Positions 8,523 through 51,655 of a stretch of DNA of 64,000 nucleotides are shown piece by piece (within the stretch, counting starts at the first letter, position 1; every line of letters starts with the position of its first letter). Origin of the DNA: Candidatus Cloacimonadales bacterium (GTDB taxonomy: Bacteria; Cloacimonadota; Cloacimonadia; Cloacimonadales; JAFGVF01); contig CAXXOU010000004.1 of the NCBI GenBank assembly GCA_963677495.2, positions 192,001-256,000 on the forward strand, written 5' to 3'. The notes beneath the pieces are model-generated. The model was not told where the DNA came from. It searched no databases and was given only the letters and a program-made list of their open reading frames with translations. The position numbers and the translations under genes are program-made.

Positions 8523-9016
8523 TAAGGATTCCTAAGGACTCCAAGAGATTCATTAGGTATATGATTCCAATTTTTTCTTGGAATTGTGTTCTTAAGAGCA
8601 AAGGTTGGCCTTTTTTTTGAAAGTGCGTTCTCCAGTTGGTTGTGGTATACATCTTGAAAGAGTGAAAATTGGGGATGATTCGGAGAAATGCATAATGCTT
8701 TTCACGAGTTCAAGACGGTGGATTATGAGTATACATTTACAATCCTACATGCCCTTAATTATAAAATATTATCAAGTTCTAACAAAATAAGTCACTTAAG
8801 ACATGTATTTAGAAAAAAGAAGTATCTATGAGAACAAACTCTTTGATATTTCTTCGTTACAATATGGGTGTCACATATTAACAATAATTGATTAAGTACA
8901 GATTGATAGAGATTTCCCTTGACAGTAATGCTTTACAAACATTTGCTATAATATAGGTATATTCATTGAAGCGGACTCATAAATGAGGTGATGTTACCTA
9001 CTTATTGGAGGAGCGG

Positions 9017-9961
9017 ATGAAAGAAAAAGTCATTCTGATGGTAAATTCGGAAAAGAAGCGAGAACAGTTGAAAACAGTGTTGAATGAAAAATATTCAGTA
9101 AAGATTAGTGAAATATTTTCTGAGCTTCCAACTGACGGGCACTATGTGATTCTTGACGATGCCACCAGAGACGATCAAGCGAATTTGACTAAGCATTTAA
9201 TCAAATCAAATAATGAACTTAAGAAAACAAACCTGCATTTAGAGCAACGCTTAAGAATGAAGAGTTCAGAGTTGATGGAGATGCAAAAAGAGTTAGAGAC
9301 ATTAAGTAAATCTATATCATACGACTTGAGAACACCGTTGAGAGCAATCTCCGGATTTGGGCAGTTGATACTTGAGGAATATAGTTCGAGTTTTGATGAT
9401 GAAGGGAAACGTTTAAGTGATATTGTTAATAACAATGTAGCAAGAATGAACGATTTGATAGATGCATTACTCAACTACTCTTACTTTAACAGATATGAGA
9501 TACAACCTGTAGATATCAATATGAATAAAATGGTGCAATCTGTATACAAAGAATTGACTACAGCAGTAGTACGTGACAAGATTGATTTGACAATTGAGAA
9601 TTTGCCAAACGCTTATGGTGACCCATTGCTCATTCGAAAAGTATGGTATATCCTATTAGCTAATGCTATAAAGTATACACAATATAATCAGAAAAGAGCC
9701 ATTTCAATAACTGCTAAAGAGCTAAGCAAAGAGTTTGTTTATAAGATAAAAGATAATGGTGTTGGATTTGATATGGAATACTCCGATAAGTTGTTTAACG
9801 CTTTCCAAAAATTGCATAGTGAGATACAATTCCCTGGGGTAGGTATGGGACTTGCCTTAGCAAAAAGAGCCATTAAGTTACATAAAGGATTAATATGGGG
9901 AGAAGGAGCAATCGATAAAGGTGCTTCATTCCAGTTTACAATCCCGAAGTTTAAAGTGTGA
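9017..9961 (+). CDS. Cytoplasmic sensor histidine kinase-like protein (H-box His replaced by Tyr)
   Basis: SISYDLRTPLRAISGF H-box, NAIKY, DNGVGFD, GVGMGLA; start at ATG after GGAGGAG. Confidence 0.85.
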   Translation: MKEKVILMVNSEKKREQLKTVLNEKYSVKISEIFSELPTDGHYVILDDATRDDQANLTKHLIKSNNELKKTNLHLEQRLRMKSSELMEMQKELETLSKSISYDLRTPLRAISGFGQLILEEYSSSFDDEGKRLSDIVNNNVARMNDLIDALLNYSYFNRYEIQPVDINMNKMVQSVYKELTTAVVRDKIDLTIENLPNAYGDPLLIRKVWYILLANAIKYTQYNQKRAISITAKELSKEFVYKIKDNGVGFDMEYSDKLFNAFQKLHSEIQFPGVGMGLALAKRAIKLHKGLIWGEGAIDKGASFQFTIPKFKV

Positions 9962-29017: not shown

Positions 29018-29452
29018 ATGAAAGGAAAAGAGATGAAAGAGAAAGAAGAAAAGAGAGTTTTGAGAAACTATAGTGTAGTATTTAAGATGAAAGTAGTAGA
29101 CGAAATCGAGAGTGGATATTTAACTATTAGTGAAGCAACTCAGCTTTATAAAATACCAAGTACGACAACCATTCGAGGTTGGATCAAAAAATATGGAATG
29201 GATCAAAAGATTGATAAGGTGGTACACTATATGACTAAAGATGAAAAGACCGAATTAATCCGCTTACGCAAGGAGAATAGACGGCTTCAGCGTGCATTGG
29301 ACGATAGCTATCTTAAAGAGTTAGCATTAGAGACATTGATAGAAGTATCCGGTAATAAGCTAGGTATGGATCTAAAAAAAAAGCTTGGTTCGATAGTGCA
29401 GGAAAAACTCAAGAAAGAGCTATTGAATGCGGACTCCGATACAGAGGATTAG
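29018..29452 (+). CDS. IS3 OrfA (HTH)
   Basis: YSVVFKMKVV...TIRGWIKKYG HTH plus coiled coil; A9G slippery run 29374-29383. Confidence 0.88.
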   Translation: MKGKEMKEKEEKRVLRNYSVVFKMKVVDEIESGYLTISEATQLYKIPSTTTIRGWIKKYGMDQKIDKVVHYMTKDEKTELIRLRKENRRLQRALDDSYLKELALETLIEVSGNKLGMDLKKKLGSIVQEKLKKELLNADSDTED

Positions 29453-29466
29453 AGAGGATTTGTAAG

Positions 29467-30255
29467 GTGTACGGTTATACAAGACAAGGCTATAATAAGC
29501 ATGTAAAAATACTCGAACGAGATGCTGCGAGAGACCGTGAGATAGTGCGACTCGTGGAAGAGCTCCGGCGAGAACAGGAGACAACAGGCTATCGAATGAT
29601 AATGAAAATGCTTATAAAACATAATGATCCTGACCTAAAGATAAGTAGAGATAAACTAATAGAGTTGTTACGTATGAATAACTTATTGCAAAGACCTCCC
29701 AAGCGATATGTAGTTACAACAAACTGGAAGCATAAATTGAAGATATACCCCAATCTTTTACCGGAAACGAACATCACAAAAAAAGACCAAGTTTGGGTAA
29801 CAGACATTACATATATCTCAGTTGGAAGGGGGTTTATGTATCTGTTTTTAGTAACAGACTACTATTCAAGAAAGATAGTTGGTCACTACTTATCTGATAC
29901 TCTGGAAACAAAAGGAGCAGTGAAGGCATTTAATAAAGCAAAAAGAGGAACAAAAATCCCGCGAGGTATAATACTTCACTCTGATCATGGTGTCCAGTAC
30001 TGTAGTAAAGAATACATCGGATTGCTTAAAAGAAGCCATGCAAGAGTTAGTATGACAGGAAAGAATCACTGCTATGATAATGCAGTCGCTGAAAGAGTAA
30101 ACAGAACATTGAAACATGATCTGGGAATGAAATTGAAATTCCCAAACAAAAAGGTCGCTTTGCAAGCAACGGAAGAAGCAGTTTATATCTATAATAATAA
30201 AAGATATCATTCTTCACTTGACTACAACACTCCTGGAAGTGTATATGCTTCTTAG
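29467..30255 (+). CDS. IS3 OrfB DDE transposase (fused to OrfA by -1 frameshift)
   Basis: WVTDITY, HSDHGVQY, DNAVAERVNRTLK, YNNKRYHSSL; the -1 frame is open back to the A-run. Confidence 0.92.
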   Translation: MYGYTRQGYNKHVKILERDAARDREIVRLVEELRREQETTGYRMIMKMLIKHNDPDLKISRDKLIELLRMNNLLQRPPKRYVVTTNWKHKLKIYPNLLPETNITKKDQVWVTDITYISVGRGFMYLFLVTDYYSRKIVGHYLSDTLETKGAVKAFNKAKRGTKIPRGIILHSDHGVQYCSKEYIGLLKRSHARVSMTGKNHCYDNAVAERVNRTLKHDLGMKLKFPNKKVALQATEEAVYIYNNKRYHSSLDYNTPGSVYAS

Positions 30256-37881: not shown

Positions 37882-37916
37882 ACTAATAAAAGGTATATAA
37901 TAAAGGAGTGAGACAT

Positions 37917-38591
37917 ATGATTGGAGAAAGAATAGTCGAACTTAGAAAGGAATTTGGGATTTCACAAGCGAAACTAGCTGAACAGTTAGGAGTAAAACCG
38001 GCAGCAGTATCTCAATTTGAAAAGGGTAAAACTAAGCCAGCTATCGAAACATTACTGAACATTGCTGATATTTTTAAAGTTAATCTACATTGGCTCTTGA
38101 AGAATGAGGGACAGAAGTATATAAATAGTACGAGTGAAGAGATACATTTTGTCGATTCACCTGTTTCTTTTAACACTGAGATTGATATGATGGAACTTCC
38201 TGTAGTTGGTGAGATTTCTGCAGGTCAACCACTCCCATGTTATCAAGATGCGGGTGAATCAGTGAAGATTAATGCTAATGAGTTAAGTGGGAATCCTGAT
38301 GATTTTCTCTGCTTTAGAGTAAATGGTGAGAGTATGCAACCTGAAATTATGCATGGAGATAAGGTCCTGATAAGGAAATCAAATGATTGGGATGCAGCTG
38401 AAGGGAAGGTTTGTGCTGTGAGACTTGACGGAGAAATAACCTTGAAGAAACTTGCCTTCAATGAAGATGATAAGAGTATAAGATTGATACCTCTAAACGT
38501 AGAGTTTGAGGATATTATCATAAGACCGGATGAGCATAGTGATATTATGCTGTTAGGCATACTTGTTTATCTCTACAGGAAAATTCAATGA
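37917..38591 (+). CDS. XRE-HTH plus S24 peptidase repressor (CI/LexA-like)
   Basis: SQAKLAEQLGV...SQFEKG HTH; ISAG cleavage site; GESM Ser and TLKK Lys dyad. Confidence 0.9.
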   Translation: MIGERIVELRKEFGISQAKLAEQLGVKPAAVSQFEKGKTKPAIETLLNIADIFKVNLHWLLKNEGQKYINSTSEEIHFVDSPVSFNTEIDMMELPVVGEISAGQPLPCYQDAGESVKINANELSGNPDDFLCFRVNGESMQPEIMHGDKVLIRKSNDWDAAEGKVCAVRLDGEITLKKLAFNEDDKSIRLIPLNVEFEDIIIRPDEHSDIMLLGILVYLYRKIQ

Positions 38592-44514: not shown

Positions 44515-45834
44515 TTAGTAGCCTCTTTCTTTGAGTAACTCAGCAAGAGTTGGTTTTCCAATCTCCTGAAGATCATAACTAACACGAGTAGATGGCTGAT
44601 CGATTTTCACAATTCTTCTCAGATCGATTGGAGTACCGATTACAACTGCATCGCACTCAGTCTTTCTGATTGTTTCTTCGAGATCTTTAATCTGCTGTTC
44701 ACCATATCCCATTGCTGGAAGAAGAACACCAACTTCAGGATATTTCTCAAATGTTTCCTGAATCTCACCAACAGCCCAAGGGCGAGGATCAACGAGGTCT
44801 GCAGCACCGCATTTCTCAGCAGCTACAACACCTGCACCATAAGCCATTTCGCCATGTGTGAGAGTTGGACCATCTTCTACAACAAGCACATTCTTGCCAA
44901 GTAATAATTCAGGATCTTCTACTGTAAGAGGAGAAGCAGCTTCTACAATCTTAGCTGTAGGGTTGATAGCACGGCAGTTTTCGCGTACTTCCTGAATATC
45001 ATCAAGGTCAGCTGAGTCGATTTTATTGATAACAATAATATCAGCTAAACGAACGTTTGTTTCGCCAGGATAGTAACTGATTTCATGACCAGGTCTATGT
45101 GGGTCAACAACAACAATGTTAACTTCTTGATCTGAAGTATAGAATGGTGTGTCATTATTACCACCGTCCCAGATGATTACATCAGCTTCTTTCTCAGCTT
45201 CACGCACGATTGCTTCATAGTCAACACCGGCATAAATGATGCTTCCCATTGCAATGTGTGGTTCATACTCTTCCATCTCTTCGATAGTACATTTGTGCTT
45301 TGCAAGGTCTTCAATTACTTCAAAGCGTTGAACTTTCTGAGCTACAAGGTCACCATAAGGCATTGGATGACGGATAGAAACAACCTTTTTACCTACGCTC
45401 TTAAGATAGCGAACAACGGCTCTAGTTGTCTGACTCTTTCCGCAACCTGTTCTAGCTGCACAAATAGTGATAAGTGGTTTAGTTGTTTTAACGCGACCAT
45501 GTTTTTCACCCATAAGCATGAAGTCAGCACCGGCTGCATTAACCATAGCAGCATTATGCATAACTCTTTCGTAAGGGAGATCACTATATGCAAGTACAAC
45601 GATATCTATATCATGTTCCTTAATAAGTTCTGGAACTTTTGCTTCAGGCAGAATTGGAATACCATTCGGATAAAGTTTTCCCGCTAAAGCAGCAGGATAT
45701 TTTTTGTCATCTATGCCCGGAATCTGAGTTGCAGTGAATGCGATTACATTATACTCCTCATTATCTCTAAAGTAATTGTTGAAATTGTGGAAATCTCTTC
45801 CCGCAGCGCCCATAATGATAACTTTCTTTTTCAT
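44515..45834 (-). CDS. arcE: P-loop protein of the cDPG-synthetase-like family; probable arginine synthetase
   Basis: IMGAAGRDFHNFN, RTGCGKSQT, RHPMPYG, EEYEPH, WDGGNND, EDGPTLTHG; directly upstream of arcC. Confidence 0.72.
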   Translation of the reverse strand: MKKKVIIMGAAGRDFHNFNNYFRDNEEYNVIAFTATQIPGIDDKKYPAALAGKLYPNGIPILPEAKVPELIKEHDIDIVVLAYSDLPYERVMHNAAMVNAAGADFMLMGEKHGRVKTTKPLITICAARTGCGKSQTTRAVVRYLKSVGKKVVSIRHPMPYGDLVAQKVQRFEVIEDLAKHKCTIEEMEEYEPHIAMGSIIYAGVDYEAIVREAEKEADVIIWDGGNNDTPFYTSDQEVNIVVVDPHRPGHEISYYPGETNVRLADIIVINKIDSADLDDIQEVRENCRAINPTAKIVEAASPLTVEDPELLLGKNVLVVEDGPTLTHGEMAYGAGVVAAEKCGAADLVDPRPWAVGEIQETFEKYPEVGVLLPAMGYGEQQIKDLEETIRKTECDAVVIGTPIDLRRIVKIDQPSTRVSYDLQEIGKPTLAELLKERGY

Positions 45835-46207
45835 GGAAACTCCTTTCTAAATGGATTTCCACCAAAAGTGGGGTTCAAAGATAATCAGTCAAGAAAAATT
45901 TAGGTTATTTCTTGGCAATATCTTTTTTGACTTTTTTTGGGGTCTCCTATCAGGCTCTTTATAGCTTATAATGCAAGAGTAGCCTAATTGATTGGGATTG
46001 AAATATGTACGTGATTTATGCTTAAGTGAGTATGCTACAGGATAGATGCAATAAAGGTATGTATTGGACCAATTAAATCAGCTCATCTTTTACCCAAAAC
46101 AAACTCATTAGCAATTTTTTTTATCAACTTCTCTTCAACTATTTAATCAAAAGACATCTTTCAACCTGTTCTTTATATAACATCAATCTCTCACTGCTCC
46201 CTCTATG

Positions 46208-46339
46208 CTCAGCATTAATTCCTGTGAGACACTTGGGTAACCCTTGGGAAACACTTGGGTAATCCTTGGGTTAATTACCAAGGGATAACCAATTTATTAT
46301 TAAGTTAGAATTGATTAGCAAGCAGTTGTTAATGCTGAG
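46208..46339. repeat. 132-bp palindromic element (copy E, homologue of copy C in reverse orientation)
   Basis: CTCAGCATTAA...TTAATGCTGAG ends; CTTGGG at 46232, 46243, 46254, 46265; CCAA at 46278, 46289. Confidence 0.8.
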
Positions 46340-46487
46340 GGAAGAGAGAGGGATAAGGGATAATTTGAGGTGCAAGCCCTTTAGTGTTTTTGATACCAGC
46401 CCTTTGGAAATATAACAAAGACATGTAGCCCTATAGGGGCGAAAGACAACCAACAACAATTATCGTAACATTCCATCTAAAATCATC

Positions 46488-46625
46488 TTACCCCCATTCA
46501 ATAAAGATATGACAAAGATTATATATTTATCCACAACTTGTGACTAACTTACTGCTTTGAGTAAGTGAGTAGTAAGAGAGTAGTAAGTGTGAAGTAAGAG
46601 AGAAGTAAGAATTGAATGGGGGTAA
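46488..46625. repeat. Inverted-repeat-bounded element with DnaA box and GTAAG 11-bp array (copy F)
   Basis: Perfect 15-bp IR TTACCCCCATTCAAT/ATTGAATGGGGGTAA; TTATCCACA-act-TGTGACTAA 46527-46547; GTAAG at 46561, 46572, 46583, 46594, 46605. Confidence 0.82.
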
Positions 46626-46684
46626 TCGTAGGAACATAAAATGCTATTTCTCCCGATTTTCCAATGACCAACAAAAGCATAATG

Positions 46685-46770
46685 TTTATATCCATCCCTT
46701 ATCCAACTTATAAGATTCCTATATGTTTATATAGGTTTCATATAAGAGACATATAGGGAACTTTTAGGGA
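46685..46770. repeat. Inverted 11-bp-period array CYTATA/TATARG (copy G)
   Basis: Cores at 46685, 46696, 46707, 46718, then 46730, 46741, 46752, 46763. Confidence 0.65.
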
Positions 46771-46859
46771 TTATGTGTCCGTTGCTCCTGTGCCTGACGG
46801 GAGATTGGAGGAATAAAATCATTTAAAATTGTGTTGGGATTATATGATGAAGATGTTCG

Positions 46860-47060
46860 TTAGGGTGACCCCTTTAGGATCAGGTTTGTTTTTATTCCCG
46901 TCCATAAGCTAAAGCCTATGGCTATTATTGGGTTATCCTTGTAGGATAAATGGGCTGCAATGCCCTTAGATAGAACCCTAATTGGGTTCACCAATGTTAG
47001 CCACAGGTTTCAACCTGTGGAATATGATAAAACAATAATTCAATCCTAAATGGATTGCCC
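46860..47060. repeat. REP-like multi-hairpin element
   Basis: Short hairpins GAACCC-taatt-GGGTTC, TAG-CCACAGGTT-tc-AACCTGTGG, CAATCC-taaat-GGATTG, plus an inverted partner set upstream. Confidence 0.6.
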
Positions 47061-47198
47061 ATTTATCCCTTGCTGATGAAAATCAATAGTGTCATTAAGG
47101 TATAATACAATTTCTTTCTTGCCATCTCGAAACCATATCTTAATATTTGCCTTAACAGATAATAATACTCAATGCAGGAGATTTAAGGGTGTTTATTT

Positions 47199-49211
47199 AT
47201 GAGACTTAAAAGATTAGATTTGAATGAAAATGATGTAGAGGATTTTGGATTAAGTACGATCAGAAGTAAAGAACTAGGACATGTGATTGCATTAGTAGGT
47301 GAAAATGGTGCTGGAAAATCTAGATATTTGAATGCTATCGAAAAACAAATTAAAAATATAAAAACTCCTATATCTTTGATTGATAAACTGTTTAAGCTTA
47401 ATAGGAGTTATGCTAGAGATGCTGATAACTACCAAAAAGCAATCAATACAATAGGTAGAGAAGAAATGGAAATTAGGCTTTCATATTTACGTTCTGAAGA
47501 ATATGAACACAATATAAATCATCAATCAGAAATTGATGAGATTGAGAGAATTCTGGCAGACAATTATGATTTGCCAACTTTTAGCAATACAGAAGAAGCT
47601 GAAACTTTCGAATCTAATACTAAGCAAGTAGTAGTTGACTTTGTTAAAAAGAGATTAGTTGTTATTAAGCATGAGGATATTGTCAATCTACATCAGCAAA
47701 TGAAAAACCCAAAAGTAGGACTTAACGATATTTTAGACAAAGCCAATATTAAAAAGGATTTCAATAAGTTGTTTGAGTCTGTTCTAGAAGATGGATTGAC
47801 ATTTTTTCAAGGCTTAGGCAATGACCTTGCAATGCATCAAATTTTGGAGAGAGAAGACCCCAGAAAAAGTGAGTTCAAAAAGAAAGAAGCTCAATGTGAT
47901 AAACTAATTGGACTGACTAGAGAATTTTTGGATAAGGATTTATCATGGGAGAGAGAAACTTTGAATCATGAACCTAGTCATGAGGGATACAAGCTTTCTG
48001 TAAAAGGTGCATGGTGTTTGAACGGTTACAAGTTCAACTATACTGATTTATCAGAAGGAGAGAGAGTATTGTTTTGTATAGTTTTAATACTTTTCCTATG
48101 TAGCTCAAACTCGGAAGCATCTGCATCTGAATCTATTATATTTTTTGATGAGCCAGAATTGAATTTACATCCTAAAATAGCTATGCGCTTGATAAACAAG
48201 CTTTCTGAACTAATTCAAAATGAAGGACAGTTAATCATAGCAACCCATTCTTTACCAATTATTGCGAATTTGGATTATCGATCAATCTTCATGGTTGATG
48301 ACAACAAAATATACAACCCATGTGCACCCAATATTCCAAAAACTATTAATAAATTGATGGGATTTGAAAATGAAATCATCAGACTTACAGAGTTTCTAAA
48401 GTCACCTGCGGCATGGGCAATGAACAGCTTTCTTGTTGAGTGTTTAACACACCCAAATGAGATAAAAGATATTAAAAAAAACGATCCTGAACTACTTGCA
48501 TTGATTCAAACAATAAACAAAGAATCGGTTAAGATATTGGATTTTGGGGCAGGACAAGGTAGAATGCTTATCGGGTTAAAAGAGCATGAAGAATTTTGGA
48601 AGAAAGTAAAATATGATTGTTATGATCATGAGGGAGAAAATGAGGAATTACTTAAATCTTTGGGAGCAAAAAATGTTATCAATAAACAACATGATCTACC
48701 AGAGAGGAATTATGATATAGTTTCTTTAATAAATGTATTACATGAAGTAGATGTGCTTGAGTGGGGTTGCCTTCTTACTAAGATAAAAAATTGTTTAAAG
48801 GATGATGGACATTTAGTCTTAATTGAAGACTCAATGATCCCTATAGGAGAGTTACCTTGTGATAATGGTTATATTATTCTTTCTGAAATTGAGCTGAAGA
48901 CACTCCTTGGTAAAAAGGCAACAAGAGTTTCTCTAAAGGATACAGTAAAGAGTGATTACGATGATAGGATTGTATGTGTATCGATTTCAAAAGCGTCAAT
49001 GAACAGTTTTGATTCAGAAATAGTGCGAGAAACTTTGCTTGAGTTAAAGAAGAACACTTTCAGAGAAGTAAAAGAATTTTACTCGAAGGAAGATGAGAAA
49101 CCATTGAACAAAGAATCTGTTAGGGATGGTCGTAATTTTGCTAGAAAAGCTATACTACATACTAATAGTATTATCGCATTAGAAAAGCTAACGAAAGCAA
49201 TGAAAATATGA
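47199..49211 (+). CDS. ABC/AAA_21-type ATPase fused to a class I SAM-dependent methyltransferase domain
   Basis: GENGAGKS Walker A, LSEGE signature, FFDEPELNLHP Walker B/D-loop, ATHS; C-terminal ILDFGAGQGR, YDIVSLINVLHE, LKDDGHLVLIE. Confidence 0.85.
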   Translation: MRLKRLDLNENDVEDFGLSTIRSKELGHVIALVGENGAGKSRYLNAIEKQIKNIKTPISLIDKLFKLNRSYARDADNYQKAINTIGREEMEIRLSYLRSEEYEHNINHQSEIDEIERILADNYDLPTFSNTEEAETFESNTKQVVVDFVKKRLVVIKHEDIVNLHQQMKNPKVGLNDILDKANIKKDFNKLFESVLEDGLTFFQGLGNDLAMHQILEREDPRKSEFKKKEAQCDKLIGLTREFLDKDLSWERETLNHEPSHEGYKLSVKGAWCLNGYKFNYTDLSEGERVLFCIVLILFLCSSNSEASASESIIFFDEPELNLHPKIAMRLINKLSELIQNEGQLIIATHSLPIIANLDYRSIFMVDDNKIYNPCAPNIPKTINKLMGFENEIIRLTEFLKSPAAWAMNSFLVECLTHPNEIKDIKKNDPELLALIQTINKESVKILDFGAGQGRMLIGLKEHEEFWKKVKYDCYDHEGENEELLKSLGAKNVINKQHDLPERNYDIVSLINVLHEVDVLEWGCLLTKIKNCLKDDGHLVLIEDSMIPIGELPCDNGYIILSEIELKTLLGKKATRVSLKDTVKSDYDDRIVCVSISKASMNSFDSEIVRETLLELKKNTFREVKEFYSKEDEKPLNKESVRDGRNFARKAILHTNSIIALEKLTKAMKI

Positions 49212-49235
49212 TGCAAAAACATGTAGGAGTATAGA

Positions 49236-49979
49236 ATGATTAGAGAAGGATTTATAATAATGATGGATATACTTGGATACAAAGATTTTGTTACAAAGAA
49301 GTTCGATTATAATGATTTCTTTGATGTATGGAGAGATTTAAAATATACTATCGAATCAAGTCAAGAAACCATTAAAAAGAGAATCCCTAGCTTTGATATT
49401 TACATTACTGGTTTCTCGGATACTTACTTTATCTGCATCTCTTTTCAAGATAGGTTTGTTAAAGAAAATACTGACGATATAGAGTATTGTTTTCTATTTA
49501 TAAACCATTTTCTGCCTGAGTTATTGCATAAATCGCTGTTAAGTAAAATCTACCTTAGAGGTGCAATAAGTTTTGGTGAATATGCTATTGATACAGAAAA
49601 TAATATAATAATAGGTGAAGCCTTAAATGATGCTGCAGAATGGTGTGAATCTACCAATTGGATGGGAATAATCTTATCCCCAAGTGCTGCGATTCAATTA
49701 GAAAAAGTGATGAAGCGTCCTGATGGTGATGGAGAATCATTGCATAGAAAGGCATTAATACTTAGTATGTATGCAACCTACCCAATCCCATACAAAAATA
49801 ACAATTACGGAAGTAAGTATGCGTTTAACCTTTTAGCTCCTTTTCCATTTACAAGTGCTAGTTTCTTTCTAAAAGAGCTAAGGAAAAAGTTTAGTGAAAC
49901 AGTTAACTCTCATAGTGAAGATAAATATAAGAACACGATGAAGTTTCTTGAGTTTTGTCTAGAAAAGATAGAGAAGTGA
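49236..49979 (+). CDS. Divergent class III nucleotidyl cyclase-like protein
   Basis: MDILGY, FSDTYF, LRGAISFGE, GEALNDAA...E, GIILSPS; AGGAG RBS, 24 bp after the ATPase stop. Confidence 0.6.
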   Translation: MIREGFIIMMDILGYKDFVTKKFDYNDFFDVWRDLKYTIESSQETIKKRIPSFDIYITGFSDTYFICISFQDRFVKENTDDIEYCFLFINHFLPELLHKSLLSKIYLRGAISFGEYAIDTENNIIIGEALNDAAEWCESTNWMGIILSPSAAIQLEKVMKRPDGDGESLHRKALILSMYATYPIPYKNNNYGSKYAFNLLAPFPFTSASFFLKELRKKFSETVNSHSEDKYKNTMKFLEFCLEKIEK

Positions 49980-50024
49980 GACAATTAGGAATTGGGCATG
50001 GTCTAAACTATATCCTTAATAAAT

Positions 50025-50280
50025 TGTGCGACCCATATAGGGTCGAAATCACTTTTTTGGGAACAGAGACCATGGGCTTACGCCACATGGCTATTCACAT
50101 TCTGTCCTTATCGGACAGGGAGAAGAGCTAATAGCTTGTAGCCTATAGCCTATAGCTTACAGTTAATAGTTAGTGTTGTTCGTTAGGGTCGCAATTCCCC
50201 GAACTCCCTTTGGTCGTAATGGTGACCGCTACTGTTTATTCAATTCTCGAAGATGCGGACAGGATGTCCGCGGTCCCAGT
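50025..50280. repeat. REP-like hairpins and heptamer tandem repeat
   Basis: CGACCC-atata-GGGTCG, CCATGGGC...CATGGCTA, CTGTCC-ttatc-GGACAG; TAGCYTA-like 7-mers 50125-50173; GCGGACA-gga-TGTCCGC 50255-50271. Confidence 0.65.
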
Positions 50281-50350: not shown

Positions 50351-51655
50351 ATGCAAAATCCTACAAAGACAATACTGAAAAAGCGTGATGGAGGGCAGTT
50401 AACTGCCTCAGAGATAAAGCATTTTATTGAATCATATTTAAAGGGAGTGGTTCCTGAGTACCAGATGTCAGCGATGCTGATGGCAATATATATGAAAGGA
50501 ATGGTTCCGGAAGAGATAGCAACACTTACAGATGTATACATAAAATCCGGTGATTTCATTGAATTCCCTAATGACATTATTACAGTTGATAAACACTCAA
50601 CCGGTGGAGTAGGTGATAAGATATCTTTGATGTTAGCACCGCTTGTAGCTTCTTTTGGAGTTCATGTTCCTATGATATCAGGCCGTGGCTTAGGTCATAC
50701 CGGTGGTACTTTAGATAAGTTAGATTCTATCCCCGGTTTCAAAACCAATATAGAAACAGAAGAGTTTAAGCGCATTGTGACTGAAGTTGGTTTGTCTATT
50801 ATAGGTCAGACTGAAAGACTTGTTCCTGCTGATAAGAGAATTTATGCCCTCAGAGATGTGACTGCTACTGTAGAAAGCTTACCACTTATCACAGCCAGTA
50901 TTATGAGTAAGAAGATAGCAGAAGGAGCAAAGAACCTTGTTGTTGACCTTAAAGTTGGTGAAGGTGCTTTCATGGACTCTATGGAAAAGGCTGAACAGCT
51001 AGCTGAACTTCTCATAAACACAGGTGAACAATTCGGACAGAAGGTTACAGTTGTCTTTACTAATATGAATGCTCCACTTGGTTTCTATGTCGGTAACTCA
51101 TTGGAAGTAATCGAGACTTTCGAATATCTCAAAGGTAAACATATACCTGATGTAGACCTTATAACAAGAACTCTCGCTACTGAGATGCTGATAATGACCG
51201 GTAAATACACTGACTGGAACAAAGCTTTCAATGAAACAGGTGTTAAGATTGCTGATGGTACAGCTCTTAAATATTGGGAGAAGATGCTGGAAGTACAGGG
51301 GGCTGATATGAGAGTTTGCAATGACTACAGTCTCTTCCCAAAAGCTAAATATGAAATCCCAATCGTATCACACAAATCAGGTAGAATCAAACGCATTGAT
51401 AGTAGAGCTATCGGATATGCACTTATAGATGTTAAAGCCGGACGCAGAAAGATAACAGATGAACTTGATTTTAGCTCAGGTGCTCTCCTAACTCATAAGA
51501 TTGGCAATGGTGTCTTTGAGAATGAAGACTTAGGCGTTGTATATTGCAACAACAAAGCAGACGGTGAGAAAGTTGCCAAGTTCATTGCCCAGTGTTATGA
51601 GATAGTACCTGATGAGGTAGAAAAGCAGGATGTGATATTGGGGATTTGGAGATAG
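50351..51655 (+). CDS. pdp: Pyrimidine-nucleoside (thymidine) phosphorylase
   Basis: DKHSTGGVGDK, SGRGLGHTGGTLDKL, YALRDVT, SIMSKK. Confidence 0.95.
   Translation: MQNPTKTILKKRDGGQLTASEIKHFIESYLKGVVPEYQMSAMLMAIYMKGMVPEEIATLTDVYIKSGDFIEFPNDIITVDKHSTGGVGDKISLMLAPLVASFGVHVPMISGRGLGHTGGTLDKLDSIPGFKTNIETEEFKRIVTEVGLSIIGQTERLVPADKRIYALRDVTATVESLPLITASIMSKKIAEGAKNLVVDLKVGEGAFMDSMEKAEQLAELLINTGEQFGQKVTVVFTNMNAPLGFYVGNSLEVIETFEYLKGKHIPDVDLITRTLATEMLIMTGKYTDWNKAFNETGVKIADGTALKYWEKMLEVQGADMRVCNDYSLFPKAKYEIPIVSHKSGRIKRIDSRAIGYALIDVKAGRRKITDELDFSSGALLTHKIGNGVFENEDLGVVYCNNKADGEKVAKFIAQCYEIVPDEVEKQDVILGIWR

Follow-up and report, generated by a model that had tools for sequence, protein, structure and literature searches.

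The question raised here is whether two adjacent genes in the genome of a Candidatus Cloacimonadales bacterium act as one defence system or only happen to stand side by side. The genes lie in a 64,000-nucleotide stretch of contig CAXXOU010000004.1 (hereafter the window), on the same strand and 24 bp apart. Gene 1 (Table 1) encodes a fusion of an ATP-binding cassette (ABC) ATPase with a class I methyltransferase dependent on S-adenosylmethionine (SAM), and gene 2 a protein with the predicted fold of a class III nucleotidyl cyclase. A preliminary description of the locus had listed these two open reading frames (ORFs) and their gap as given here, and had proposed that they are coupled in a new defence system. 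We consider it highly probable that they are instead two independently mobile accessory genes lying together at a repeat-rich breakpoint and not a dedicated pair, because sequence profiles find no partner for either gene in 111 gene-1 loci, in 38 gene-2 loci or in the other genomes searched. The whole explanation preferred here, in which the accessory genes are independent, gene 1 encodes a conflict protein and gene 2 a solitary nucleotidyl-transfer enzyme, was assigned a rough probability of 0.55.

Association of the two genes

The gene-1 loci included 25 of the 80 loci first collected from genomes, 80 that were retained among 195 confirmed in metagenomes, and five of ten viral loci; the remaining 55 genome loci (other ABC ATPases) and five viral loci (weak partial matches) were excluded from the counts. 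The gene-2 loci were obtained from whole-genome searches of two taxa, no stretch of gene 2 being conserved enough for a pattern scan. With filters off, a gene-2 profile run against ORFs and six-frame translations matched in none of the gene-1 loci (0/111; best E 0.65), and it was also negative in the 55 loci of other ABC ATPases. At least 1 kb of downstream sequence is present in 83 of the 111 loci, among which are some near-duplicates; with the loci treated as independent, 0/83 places a 95% upper bound of ~3.5% on adjacency. The four closest relatives of gene 1 (L001, L149, L150 and L151) were all negative; they were identified in a FastTree tree that carried long-branch warnings and was used for coarse grouping only. 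In the opposite direction, the gene-1 methyltransferase profile matched in 0/38 gene-2 loci, of which 32 have room for gene 1 upstream (hand count).

Whole genomes gave the same result. Gene 1 is present in 2/232 genomes of the window's phylum and in 2/401 Flavobacteriaceae genomes, and gene 2 in 25/232 and 11/401, respectively. Both genes together were found only in G000, the genome of the window, among the former and in none of the latter; none of five further whole genomes with gene 1 that were tested holds gene 2. The proposed two-gene system was therefore not sustained. The pairing is probably an accident of insertion, so the two genes are treated separately below, as two candidate antiphage genes from widespread and apparently unstudied families. 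Each of them may plausibly act in defence. They are probably co-transcribed.

The ATPase–methyltransferase encoded by gene 1

Pfam assigns AAA_21 to residues 30–353 of gene 1 (E 3.5e-18) and Methyltransf_23 to residues 434–542 (E 2.7e-11). The ATPase motif residues are present (Walker A, G34–S41; signature, S285/G287; Walker B, D317–E318; H350), as is SAM motif I (D448–R455). The top PADLOC match is PtuA (71.6 bits); against the NCBIfam PtuA model the score is 43.7 bits with a cut-off of 500 bits. In the AlphaFold (AF2) model, which has a pLDDT (the predicted value of the local distance difference test) of 74, the N-terminal half gives retron I-A/Septu PtuA structures as top Foldseek matches (9n69, 9vhe and 8eea), and residues 419–600 superpose on small-molecule class I methyltransferases with Z ~15 and many ties. 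The methyltransferase domain has a Rossmann-type fold and the DxGxGxG motif I (D448, G450, G452, G454) of class I enzymes. Complete ABC-ATPase motifs and a class I SAM domain, as read in the preliminary description, are thus confirmed by Pfam, by the motif residues and by their conservation.

Conservation was assessed in an alignment of 99 full-length rows, 95 of them different. The ATPase motif residues are kept in 96–99 rows; D429, G452, R455, N512, V513, H515, E516, W522, E543, G550 and E551 are invariant (99/99), and the acidic residue after strand 2 (D/E476) occurs in 96/99. The metagenome scan used an NVLHEI pattern and is circular for the NVLHE residues; the methyltransferase residues are equally invariant in 24 loci that were found via ATPase patterns alone. 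In DNA amino-methyltransferases the motif [SDN]PP[FYW] follows strand 4 (PMC10853773). Because NVLHE, with N, V, H and E invariant, occupies this position in gene 1, its methyltransferase is not a DNA methylase of the restriction–modification (RM) type. At residue 431 (48489–48491) the window protein has Glu where the other 98/99 rows have Gln, within a conserved D-x-Q before the methyltransferase.

The gene-1 fusion is a real family, kept as a single chain across several phyla, sporadic and mostly stand-alone. It includes 24 other full-length proteins (P0002–P0025) at 32–37% identity and a few more distant ones, with named hosts among Bacteroidota, Pseudomonadota, Bacillota, Myxococcota and Verrucomicrobiota. 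Five IMG/VR contigs carry gene 1, three of them (L230, L232 and L233) beside tail or baseplate genes; none was found in the plasmid collection at 1e-15. When the 472 ORFs neighbouring gene-1 loci were clustered, no family occurred in more than three loci; no metabolic or transporter gene recurs among them, and neither does an HNH/PtuB or reverse transcriptase gene beside gene-1 relatives.

Individual contexts were as follows. Among the 111 loci, the gene-1 relative of L218 (1239–3107) is embedded in a type I RM operon between hsdR and hsdM, with one 9-bp junction and one overlapping, a PrrC-like position; that of L192 directly follows hsdS and that of L004 lies two genes ahead of hsdM–hsdS. 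In L155 the relative precedes a type IIG/ISP gene. Two Lachnospiraceae relatives (L016:3776–5314 and L021:3123–4652) are divergent from a dCTP-deaminase defence gene scoring 529 and 507 bits in PADLOC, respectively, and L021 adjoins terminase and portal genes. In three of the 111 loci an HD-domain protein of 744–769 aa is encoded downstream, either directly or after a gene of 111–122 aa (L185:5995–8226, L201:7123–9384 and L220:1695–4001). The gene-1 relatives of these three loci (~560 aa) form one clade; the window protein belongs to another, beside Bacteroidota sequences, and has no HD partner.

Two further observations concern the integrity of gene-1 copies. The only other relative found in the window's phylum (L142:2708–4401, genome G202) is split into two ORFs (406 and 158 aa) and lies between a KilA-N/PDC-S22 gene and a transposase gene. 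Burkholderia members of the P0032 cluster are recorded at 617, 610, 548, 419, 404 and 207 aa, a spread that points to either frequent truncation or inconsistent gene calling.

By best PADLOC and fold match, the ABC ATPase of gene 1 is nearest to PtuA of Septu and retron I-A, with an NCBIfam score far below the cut-off; gene 1 differs from these systems in its fused methyltransferase and in having no HNH PtuB or reverse transcriptase beside it. Like gene 1, PrrC/RloC, OLD, HEC-04 and fused PARIS are single chains that start with an ABC ATPase and carry an enzyme at the C terminus, and a single-chain ABC ATPase with its effector is an established defence design (10.1101/2024.01.29.577857). Unlike in PARIS, OLD, Gabija and HEC-04, no TOPRIM nuclease is fused or adjacent to gene 1, the neighbour of which is the cyclase-like gene 2. 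The C-terminal domain of PrrC and RloC is a HEPN anticodon nuclease, whereas that of gene 1 is a class I methyltransferase. PrrC lies within a type I RM operon (10.1101/2024.01.29.577857), whereas gene 1 of the window lies outside any such operon.

It is moderately probable that gene 1 is a self-contained conflict protein built as an ABC-ATPase sensor with a fused effector, because PtuA is its best hidden Markov model (HMM) and fold match, the catalytic residues of both halves are invariant and copies occur in prophage and RM settings. In related systems, ABC ATPases detect phage and switch on an effector that is either fused to them or associated with them, the triggers being Ocr, Stp and RecBCD inhibitors (10.1101/2024.01.29.577857; PMC12065111). 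For both genes we infer every step of the mechanism. The ATPase heads of gene 1 would oligomerize and hold the methyltransferase off until it is released by a phage cue, which, as in PARIS, PrrC and OLD, would be either a shift in nucleotides or an anti-restriction protein. The methyltransferase would be the effector, methylating an essential host molecule (a nucleotide, cofactor or RNA) at an O or N atom and so arresting the infected cell. His515 is its likely base, by analogy with the LH-D/E motifs of O-methyltransferases.

ABC-ATPase defence systems are known to use nuclease-type effectors; TOPRIM, NERD, PIN, proteases and sirtuins are named among their effectors (10.1101/2024.01.29.577857). 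If the proposal is true, a catalytically intact, fused methyltransferase of non-DNA type would extend the outputs of this group to a new chemistry, and methylation would serve to kill or stall and not to mark self. Gene 1 is also a single gene with clear residues for mutation (K40, E318, G450 and H515).

The cyclase-fold protein encoded by gene 2

Gene 2 matches nothing in Pfam, PADLOC or NCBIfam, so that the PADLOC check suggested in the preliminary description returned a match for gene 1 only; one weak PHROG match is of unknown function. The AF2 model, computed from an 85-row alignment, has a pLDDT of 91 and folds like a class III cyclase (Foldseek E 1.3e-6; 3et6, Z 12.4, root-mean-square deviation 3.6 over 170 residues). 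Against GGDEF domains Z is ~8. A search of the ESM Atlas with gene 2 returned unnamed clusters first, the nearest named one being Guanylate_cyc (0.88), and the gene-2 profile matched none of the sequences of solved structures. The metal-type Asp residues are kept (D11 in 82/85 rows, D62 in 85/85), and R108 is present in 83/85. The cyclase-like fold and the two Asp motifs that had been read from the sequence are therefore upheld.

The remainder of the active site departs from the cyclase pattern. We take the transition-state Asn-x-x-x-Arg of class III cyclases to lie in the helix after a conserved Gly, the register being inferred from G127. Position 131 is Asn in 14/85 rows and position 135 is mostly Glu, Ser, Asp or Lys; the canonical pair is not kept in the family. 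The absence of an Arg after N-x-A-A had been pointed out correctly, and the Asn of that motif proves incidental, the next residue (D/E132) being acidic in 85/85 rows. K230 (84 rows), N233 (81 rows), W142-x-G144, P149 and P185 are also conserved. The model suggests that gene 2 encodes a class III cyclase-fold enzyme that stands alone, transfers nucleotidyl groups with the help of two metals and has had its active site rewired. A homodimer predicted with ATP and Mg scored 0.37 against a mark of 0.42 and was used neither way.

The gene-2 family is large: at an E value of at most 0.001 it has 1,290 representatives (50% identity clusters). It is covered by no model of Pfam, PADLOC or NCBIfam, and the metal site of cyclases is retained in it while the Asn/Arg pair is replaced. 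A single-sequence search of phage records and IMG/VR gave no match, and the plasmid collection gave three weak ones. Among longer forms (544–2000 aa, a range that would include a gene 1–gene 2 fusion) none scored, which is weak evidence. Gene-2 relatives routinely occupy frame-tight positions behind unrelated genes. In four related prophages from genomes of the window's order (L123, L127, L128 and L129) the relative is cargo, lying antisense with the tape-measure gene on one side and two Dam-like methylase genes on the other. BREX and PD-T4-3, Upx/Avs-like, NucC-like and PDC genes are neighbours at other loci. No effector recurs in the 38 loci, and no transmembrane or cyclic nucleoside monophosphate (cNMP)-binding TIR effector gene is conserved among them or lies in the window.

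In genome G012, gene-2 relatives lie twice (L130:1595–5561 and L133:6751–10771) beside an unannotated protein of 1,187–1,204 aa with a C-terminal HATPase and a 140-aa receiver protein, once adjoining AbiE. In G011 a gene-2-family domain is part of a 590-aa ORF (L139:5574–7343), the remainder of which has no Pfam or PADLOC match.

Of the described systems, Pycsar is close, Pucsar being grouped with it: gene 2 shares with PycC the class III fold and two metal-binding Asp residues (7r65, Z 9.6; 8jsf, Z 10.6), and the spacing and role of these residues in PycC match D11 and D62 (PMC11224242). It differs in having no PycC HMM match, no adjacent effector and conserved residues of its own (D/E132, W142–G144, K230 and N233). 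With OptS of Panoptes (mCpol) it shares a palm-type fold with two Asp residues (9mnr, Z 7.2 over 109 residues). OptS has ~119 aa and is coupled to S-2TM-beta, CARF or SAVED effectors (PMC12657218), whereas gene 2 is twice as long (247 aa), is nearer to class III cyclases (Z 12.4) and has no such partner. Lugos, considered as a candidate match, was rejected, as it is a helix–turn–helix (HTH) protein (10.1101/2024.07.02.601686). Whether gene 2 acts in phage conflict without an effector in cis, consuming a nucleoside triphosphate (NTP) or making a nucleotide read in trans, stands at about even odds in our estimate; it would either drain the NTP or supply receptors encoded elsewhere.

DefensePredictor validated systems with P-loop and methyltransferase domains (10.1101/2025.01.08.631726). 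Judged by titles and the beginnings of abstracts, no paper returned by the literature searches describes either family. The census of ABC-ATPase conflict systems by Krishnan et al. 2020 may already list an ATPase–methylase fusion.

Competing explanations and the setting of the locus

Defence neighbourhoods were counted by hand, the criterion being an RM or AbiE neighbour of at least 100 bits in PADLOC (2023 version). As controls, 19 regions were picked at even spacing from six complete genomes belonging to the window's phylum; 18 were usable, L252 (G207:C1:700000–712800) being taken up completely by a single ORF that exceeds 4,260 aa. Such a neighbour was present in 12/38 gene-2 loci versus 1/18 controls (p 0.04; within the phylum 12/27, p 0.006). 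Gene 2 leans towards RM and prophage neighbourhoods, and its enrichment is modest. For gene 1 this sample shows no enrichment in defence islands. The defence-island enrichment suggested as a check in the preliminary description was accordingly seen for one gene and not for the other, and the defence case for gene 1 is made from its ATPase class, its patchy spread and individual contexts.

Several points weigh against a defence reading. An RM or AbiE neighbour was counted for 5/90 gene-1 loci versus 1/18 controls (p 1.0), namely 2/25 genome loci (three genes on each side) and 3/65 metagenome or viral loci (two on each side, with 148 of 178 neighbouring proteins scanned); for any PADLOC match of at least 100 bits the figures are 20/90 and 4/18. 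Most gene-1 copies sit among housekeeping genes, and the window contains no further defence gene. The criterion was fixed after the first neighbourhood results had been seen, and the control regions, all taken from the window's phylum, are not matched to the gene-1 hosts. For gene 2, the signal amounts to 12/19 in the first loci and 0/19 in the second set, and four of the 12 positives are the related prophages with Dam-like genes. The gene-1 methyltransferase is equally near to many biosynthetic small-molecule enzymes, so its proposed substrate is a guess.

The preferred explanation was weighed against three others. A true two-gene system, in which the ATPase–methyltransferase and the cyclase-fold protein act together, is judged very improbable. 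The two genes share a strand, a 24-bp gap and alike low GC contents (0.32 each; 0.26 and 0.28 at third codon positions), both are missing from the matching sites of G011, a complete genome of the same genus, and gene 1 does have a dedicated partner, an HD hydrolase, in a different clade of the family. Because relatives above ~40% identity were found for neither gene (best ~37–39%), so that none is close enough to reveal recent linkage, the two may form a young, lineage-specific partnership. Against this stand the 0/111 and 0/38 counts and the want of a second genome with both genes among 232 and 401, the frame-tight placement of gene-2 relatives behind unrelated genes, and a Pfam scan of gene 1 in which no cyclic-nucleotide-binding domain was found. 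It is also quite unlikely that gene 1 is a defence protein in which the methyltransferase half senses SAM or regulates, perhaps as a guard of RM systems when phages deploy SAM lyases, and in which either the ATPase or a partner, such as the HD hydrolase, delivers the output. Since type I RM operons depend on SAM, the gene-1 copies found inside them would suit such a sensor, as would the HD-coupled clade, and the literature searches turned up no established defence system whose toxic effector is a methyltransferase. The invariance of N512, H515, E516, W522, E543, G550 and E551 (99/99), which lie beyond the SAM-binding loop, however, fits catalysis better than binding alone, and for most copies neither a partner nor RM genes are found in the vicinity.

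The remaining explanation places gene 1 outside defence, as an accessory, ATP-regulated small-molecule methyltransferase for detoxification or metabolite tailoring, with gene 2 as an unrelated signalling enzyme or degenerate cyclase. The lack of defence-island enrichment for gene 1 and the biosynthetic methyltransferases among its fold neighbours agree with this, and elsewhere in G000 there are seven matches to ordinary cyclases and three cNMP-binding domains that gene 2 could feed. We nevertheless regard it as unlikely: the ATPase is of the PtuA/AriA/OLD type and not of the transporter type, no metabolic or transporter neighbour recurs in the 472 ORFs, and the distribution is patchy across distant phyla, with prophage cargo positions and insertions into RM operons. 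For the preferred explanation in its strongest form, with gene 1 as a cross-phylum, single-protein, ATPase-gated toxic-methyltransferase system and gene 2 as a large, effector-less, rewired branch of cyclase-fold defence proteins that would use up NTPs or make a non-canonical nucleotide, we put the chances below even, and this joint proposal is tentative.

Table 1. Coordinates of the two genes, their domains and sites, and the flanking features in the window.
Feature	Position	Strand	Basis or remark
Gene 1 (P0001), ABC-ATPase::class I SAM-methyltransferase fusion	47199..49211	+	670 aa; ORF, Pfam, AF2
PtuA/OLD-type ABC ATPase domain of gene 1 (~aa 1–375)	47199..48323	+	Pfam AAA_21/AAA_15, PADLOC PtuA, Foldseek
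Walker A, gene 1	47298–47321	+	
Signature, gene 1	48048–48062	+	
Walker B, gene 1	48141–48158	+	
H-loop, gene 1	48240–48248	+	
Class I methyltransferase domain of gene 1 (~aa 423–600)	48465..48998	+	Pfam; Z ~15 to small-molecule methyltransferases
Motif I DFGAGQGR, gene 1	48540–48563	+	
NVLHE after strand 4, gene 1	48732–48746	+	
C-terminal two-helix extension of gene 1, conserved G644/R645 and N656	49014..49208	+	AF2 model, alignment
Gene 2 (P0039), predicted class III nucleotidyl-cyclase-fold protein	49236..49979	+	247 aa; AF2, Foldseek, 85-row conservation
D11, gene 2	49266–49268	+	
D62, gene 2	49419–49421	+	
RGAISFG, gene 2	49557–49577	+	
G127–E135, gene 2	49614–49640	+	
K230–N233, gene 2	49923–49934	+	
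Left neighbour, conserved GTPase-like core gene, outside the unit	44515..45834	-	in 5/5 relatives tested
Right neighbour, pyrimidine-nucleoside phosphorylase (pdp), core gene, outside the unit	50351..51655	+	Pfam
Upstream intergenic stretch, several genome-wide repeat families, not locus-specific; synteny breakpoint versus G011	46174..47064		repeat and synteny comparison
Downstream intergenic repeats, family unlike the upstream ones, up to ~40 copies elsewhere in the genome	50069..50234		repeat comparison

The presence of both genes at this site is not an assembly error, because a short-read contig of 3,383 bp covers 46717–50099 with no differences in 4/4 runs; the four runs represent one sample, possibly the source of the window. 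Short-read joints that skip both genes were rejected as evidence of an empty site, their short side being only 20–21 letters. Depth was lower in run X4. The GC content is 0.37–0.42 in six neighbouring core genes and 0.33 in a secreted-protein gene, compared with 0.32 in genes 1 and 2. A separate AGGAG precedes the ATG of gene 2 by 6 nt. A promoter scan yielded 12 sites versus 19.6 expected by chance, and none is claimed.

The repeats described at both flanks as resembling repetitive extragenic palindromes are real; they belong to several different genome-wide families and do not delimit an element. About 38 copies of the repeat at 46234 and ~39 of that at 50199 occur elsewhere, and similar repeats follow pdp. 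Matches common to the upstream and downstream flanks are at most 21 bp, the longest exact one being 13 bp. The flanking repeats were thus rejected as element ends, being a patchwork of intergenic families. The site is a rearrangement breakpoint with no clean empty allele readable, because the two flanking core genes lie 85 kb apart in G011. There, the GTPase gene is followed by a homologue of the window gene at 9005–9958, which places the breakpoint at 45834–47199 of the window. Gene 1 was not found in G011.

The label pdp given to the right neighbour agrees with Pfam; the gene is kept in 3/5 relatives tested, the three being the near-complete ones. The label arcE for the left neighbour was confirmed by no library, the only matches being weak ones to CobW/HypB GTPases; it is plausible, a carbamate-kinase-like gene lying beside it. 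The region at 22–38 kb was rejected as a prophage carrying both genes, since it consists of housekeeping genes and one IS3-type insertion element (29018–30252), with HTH transposase and rve integrase ORFs. A LexA/CI-type HTH-S24 repressor is encoded at 37908–38591 with no recognizable prophage around it. The window also encodes many proteins with FlgD or type IX secretion system (T9SS) tails.

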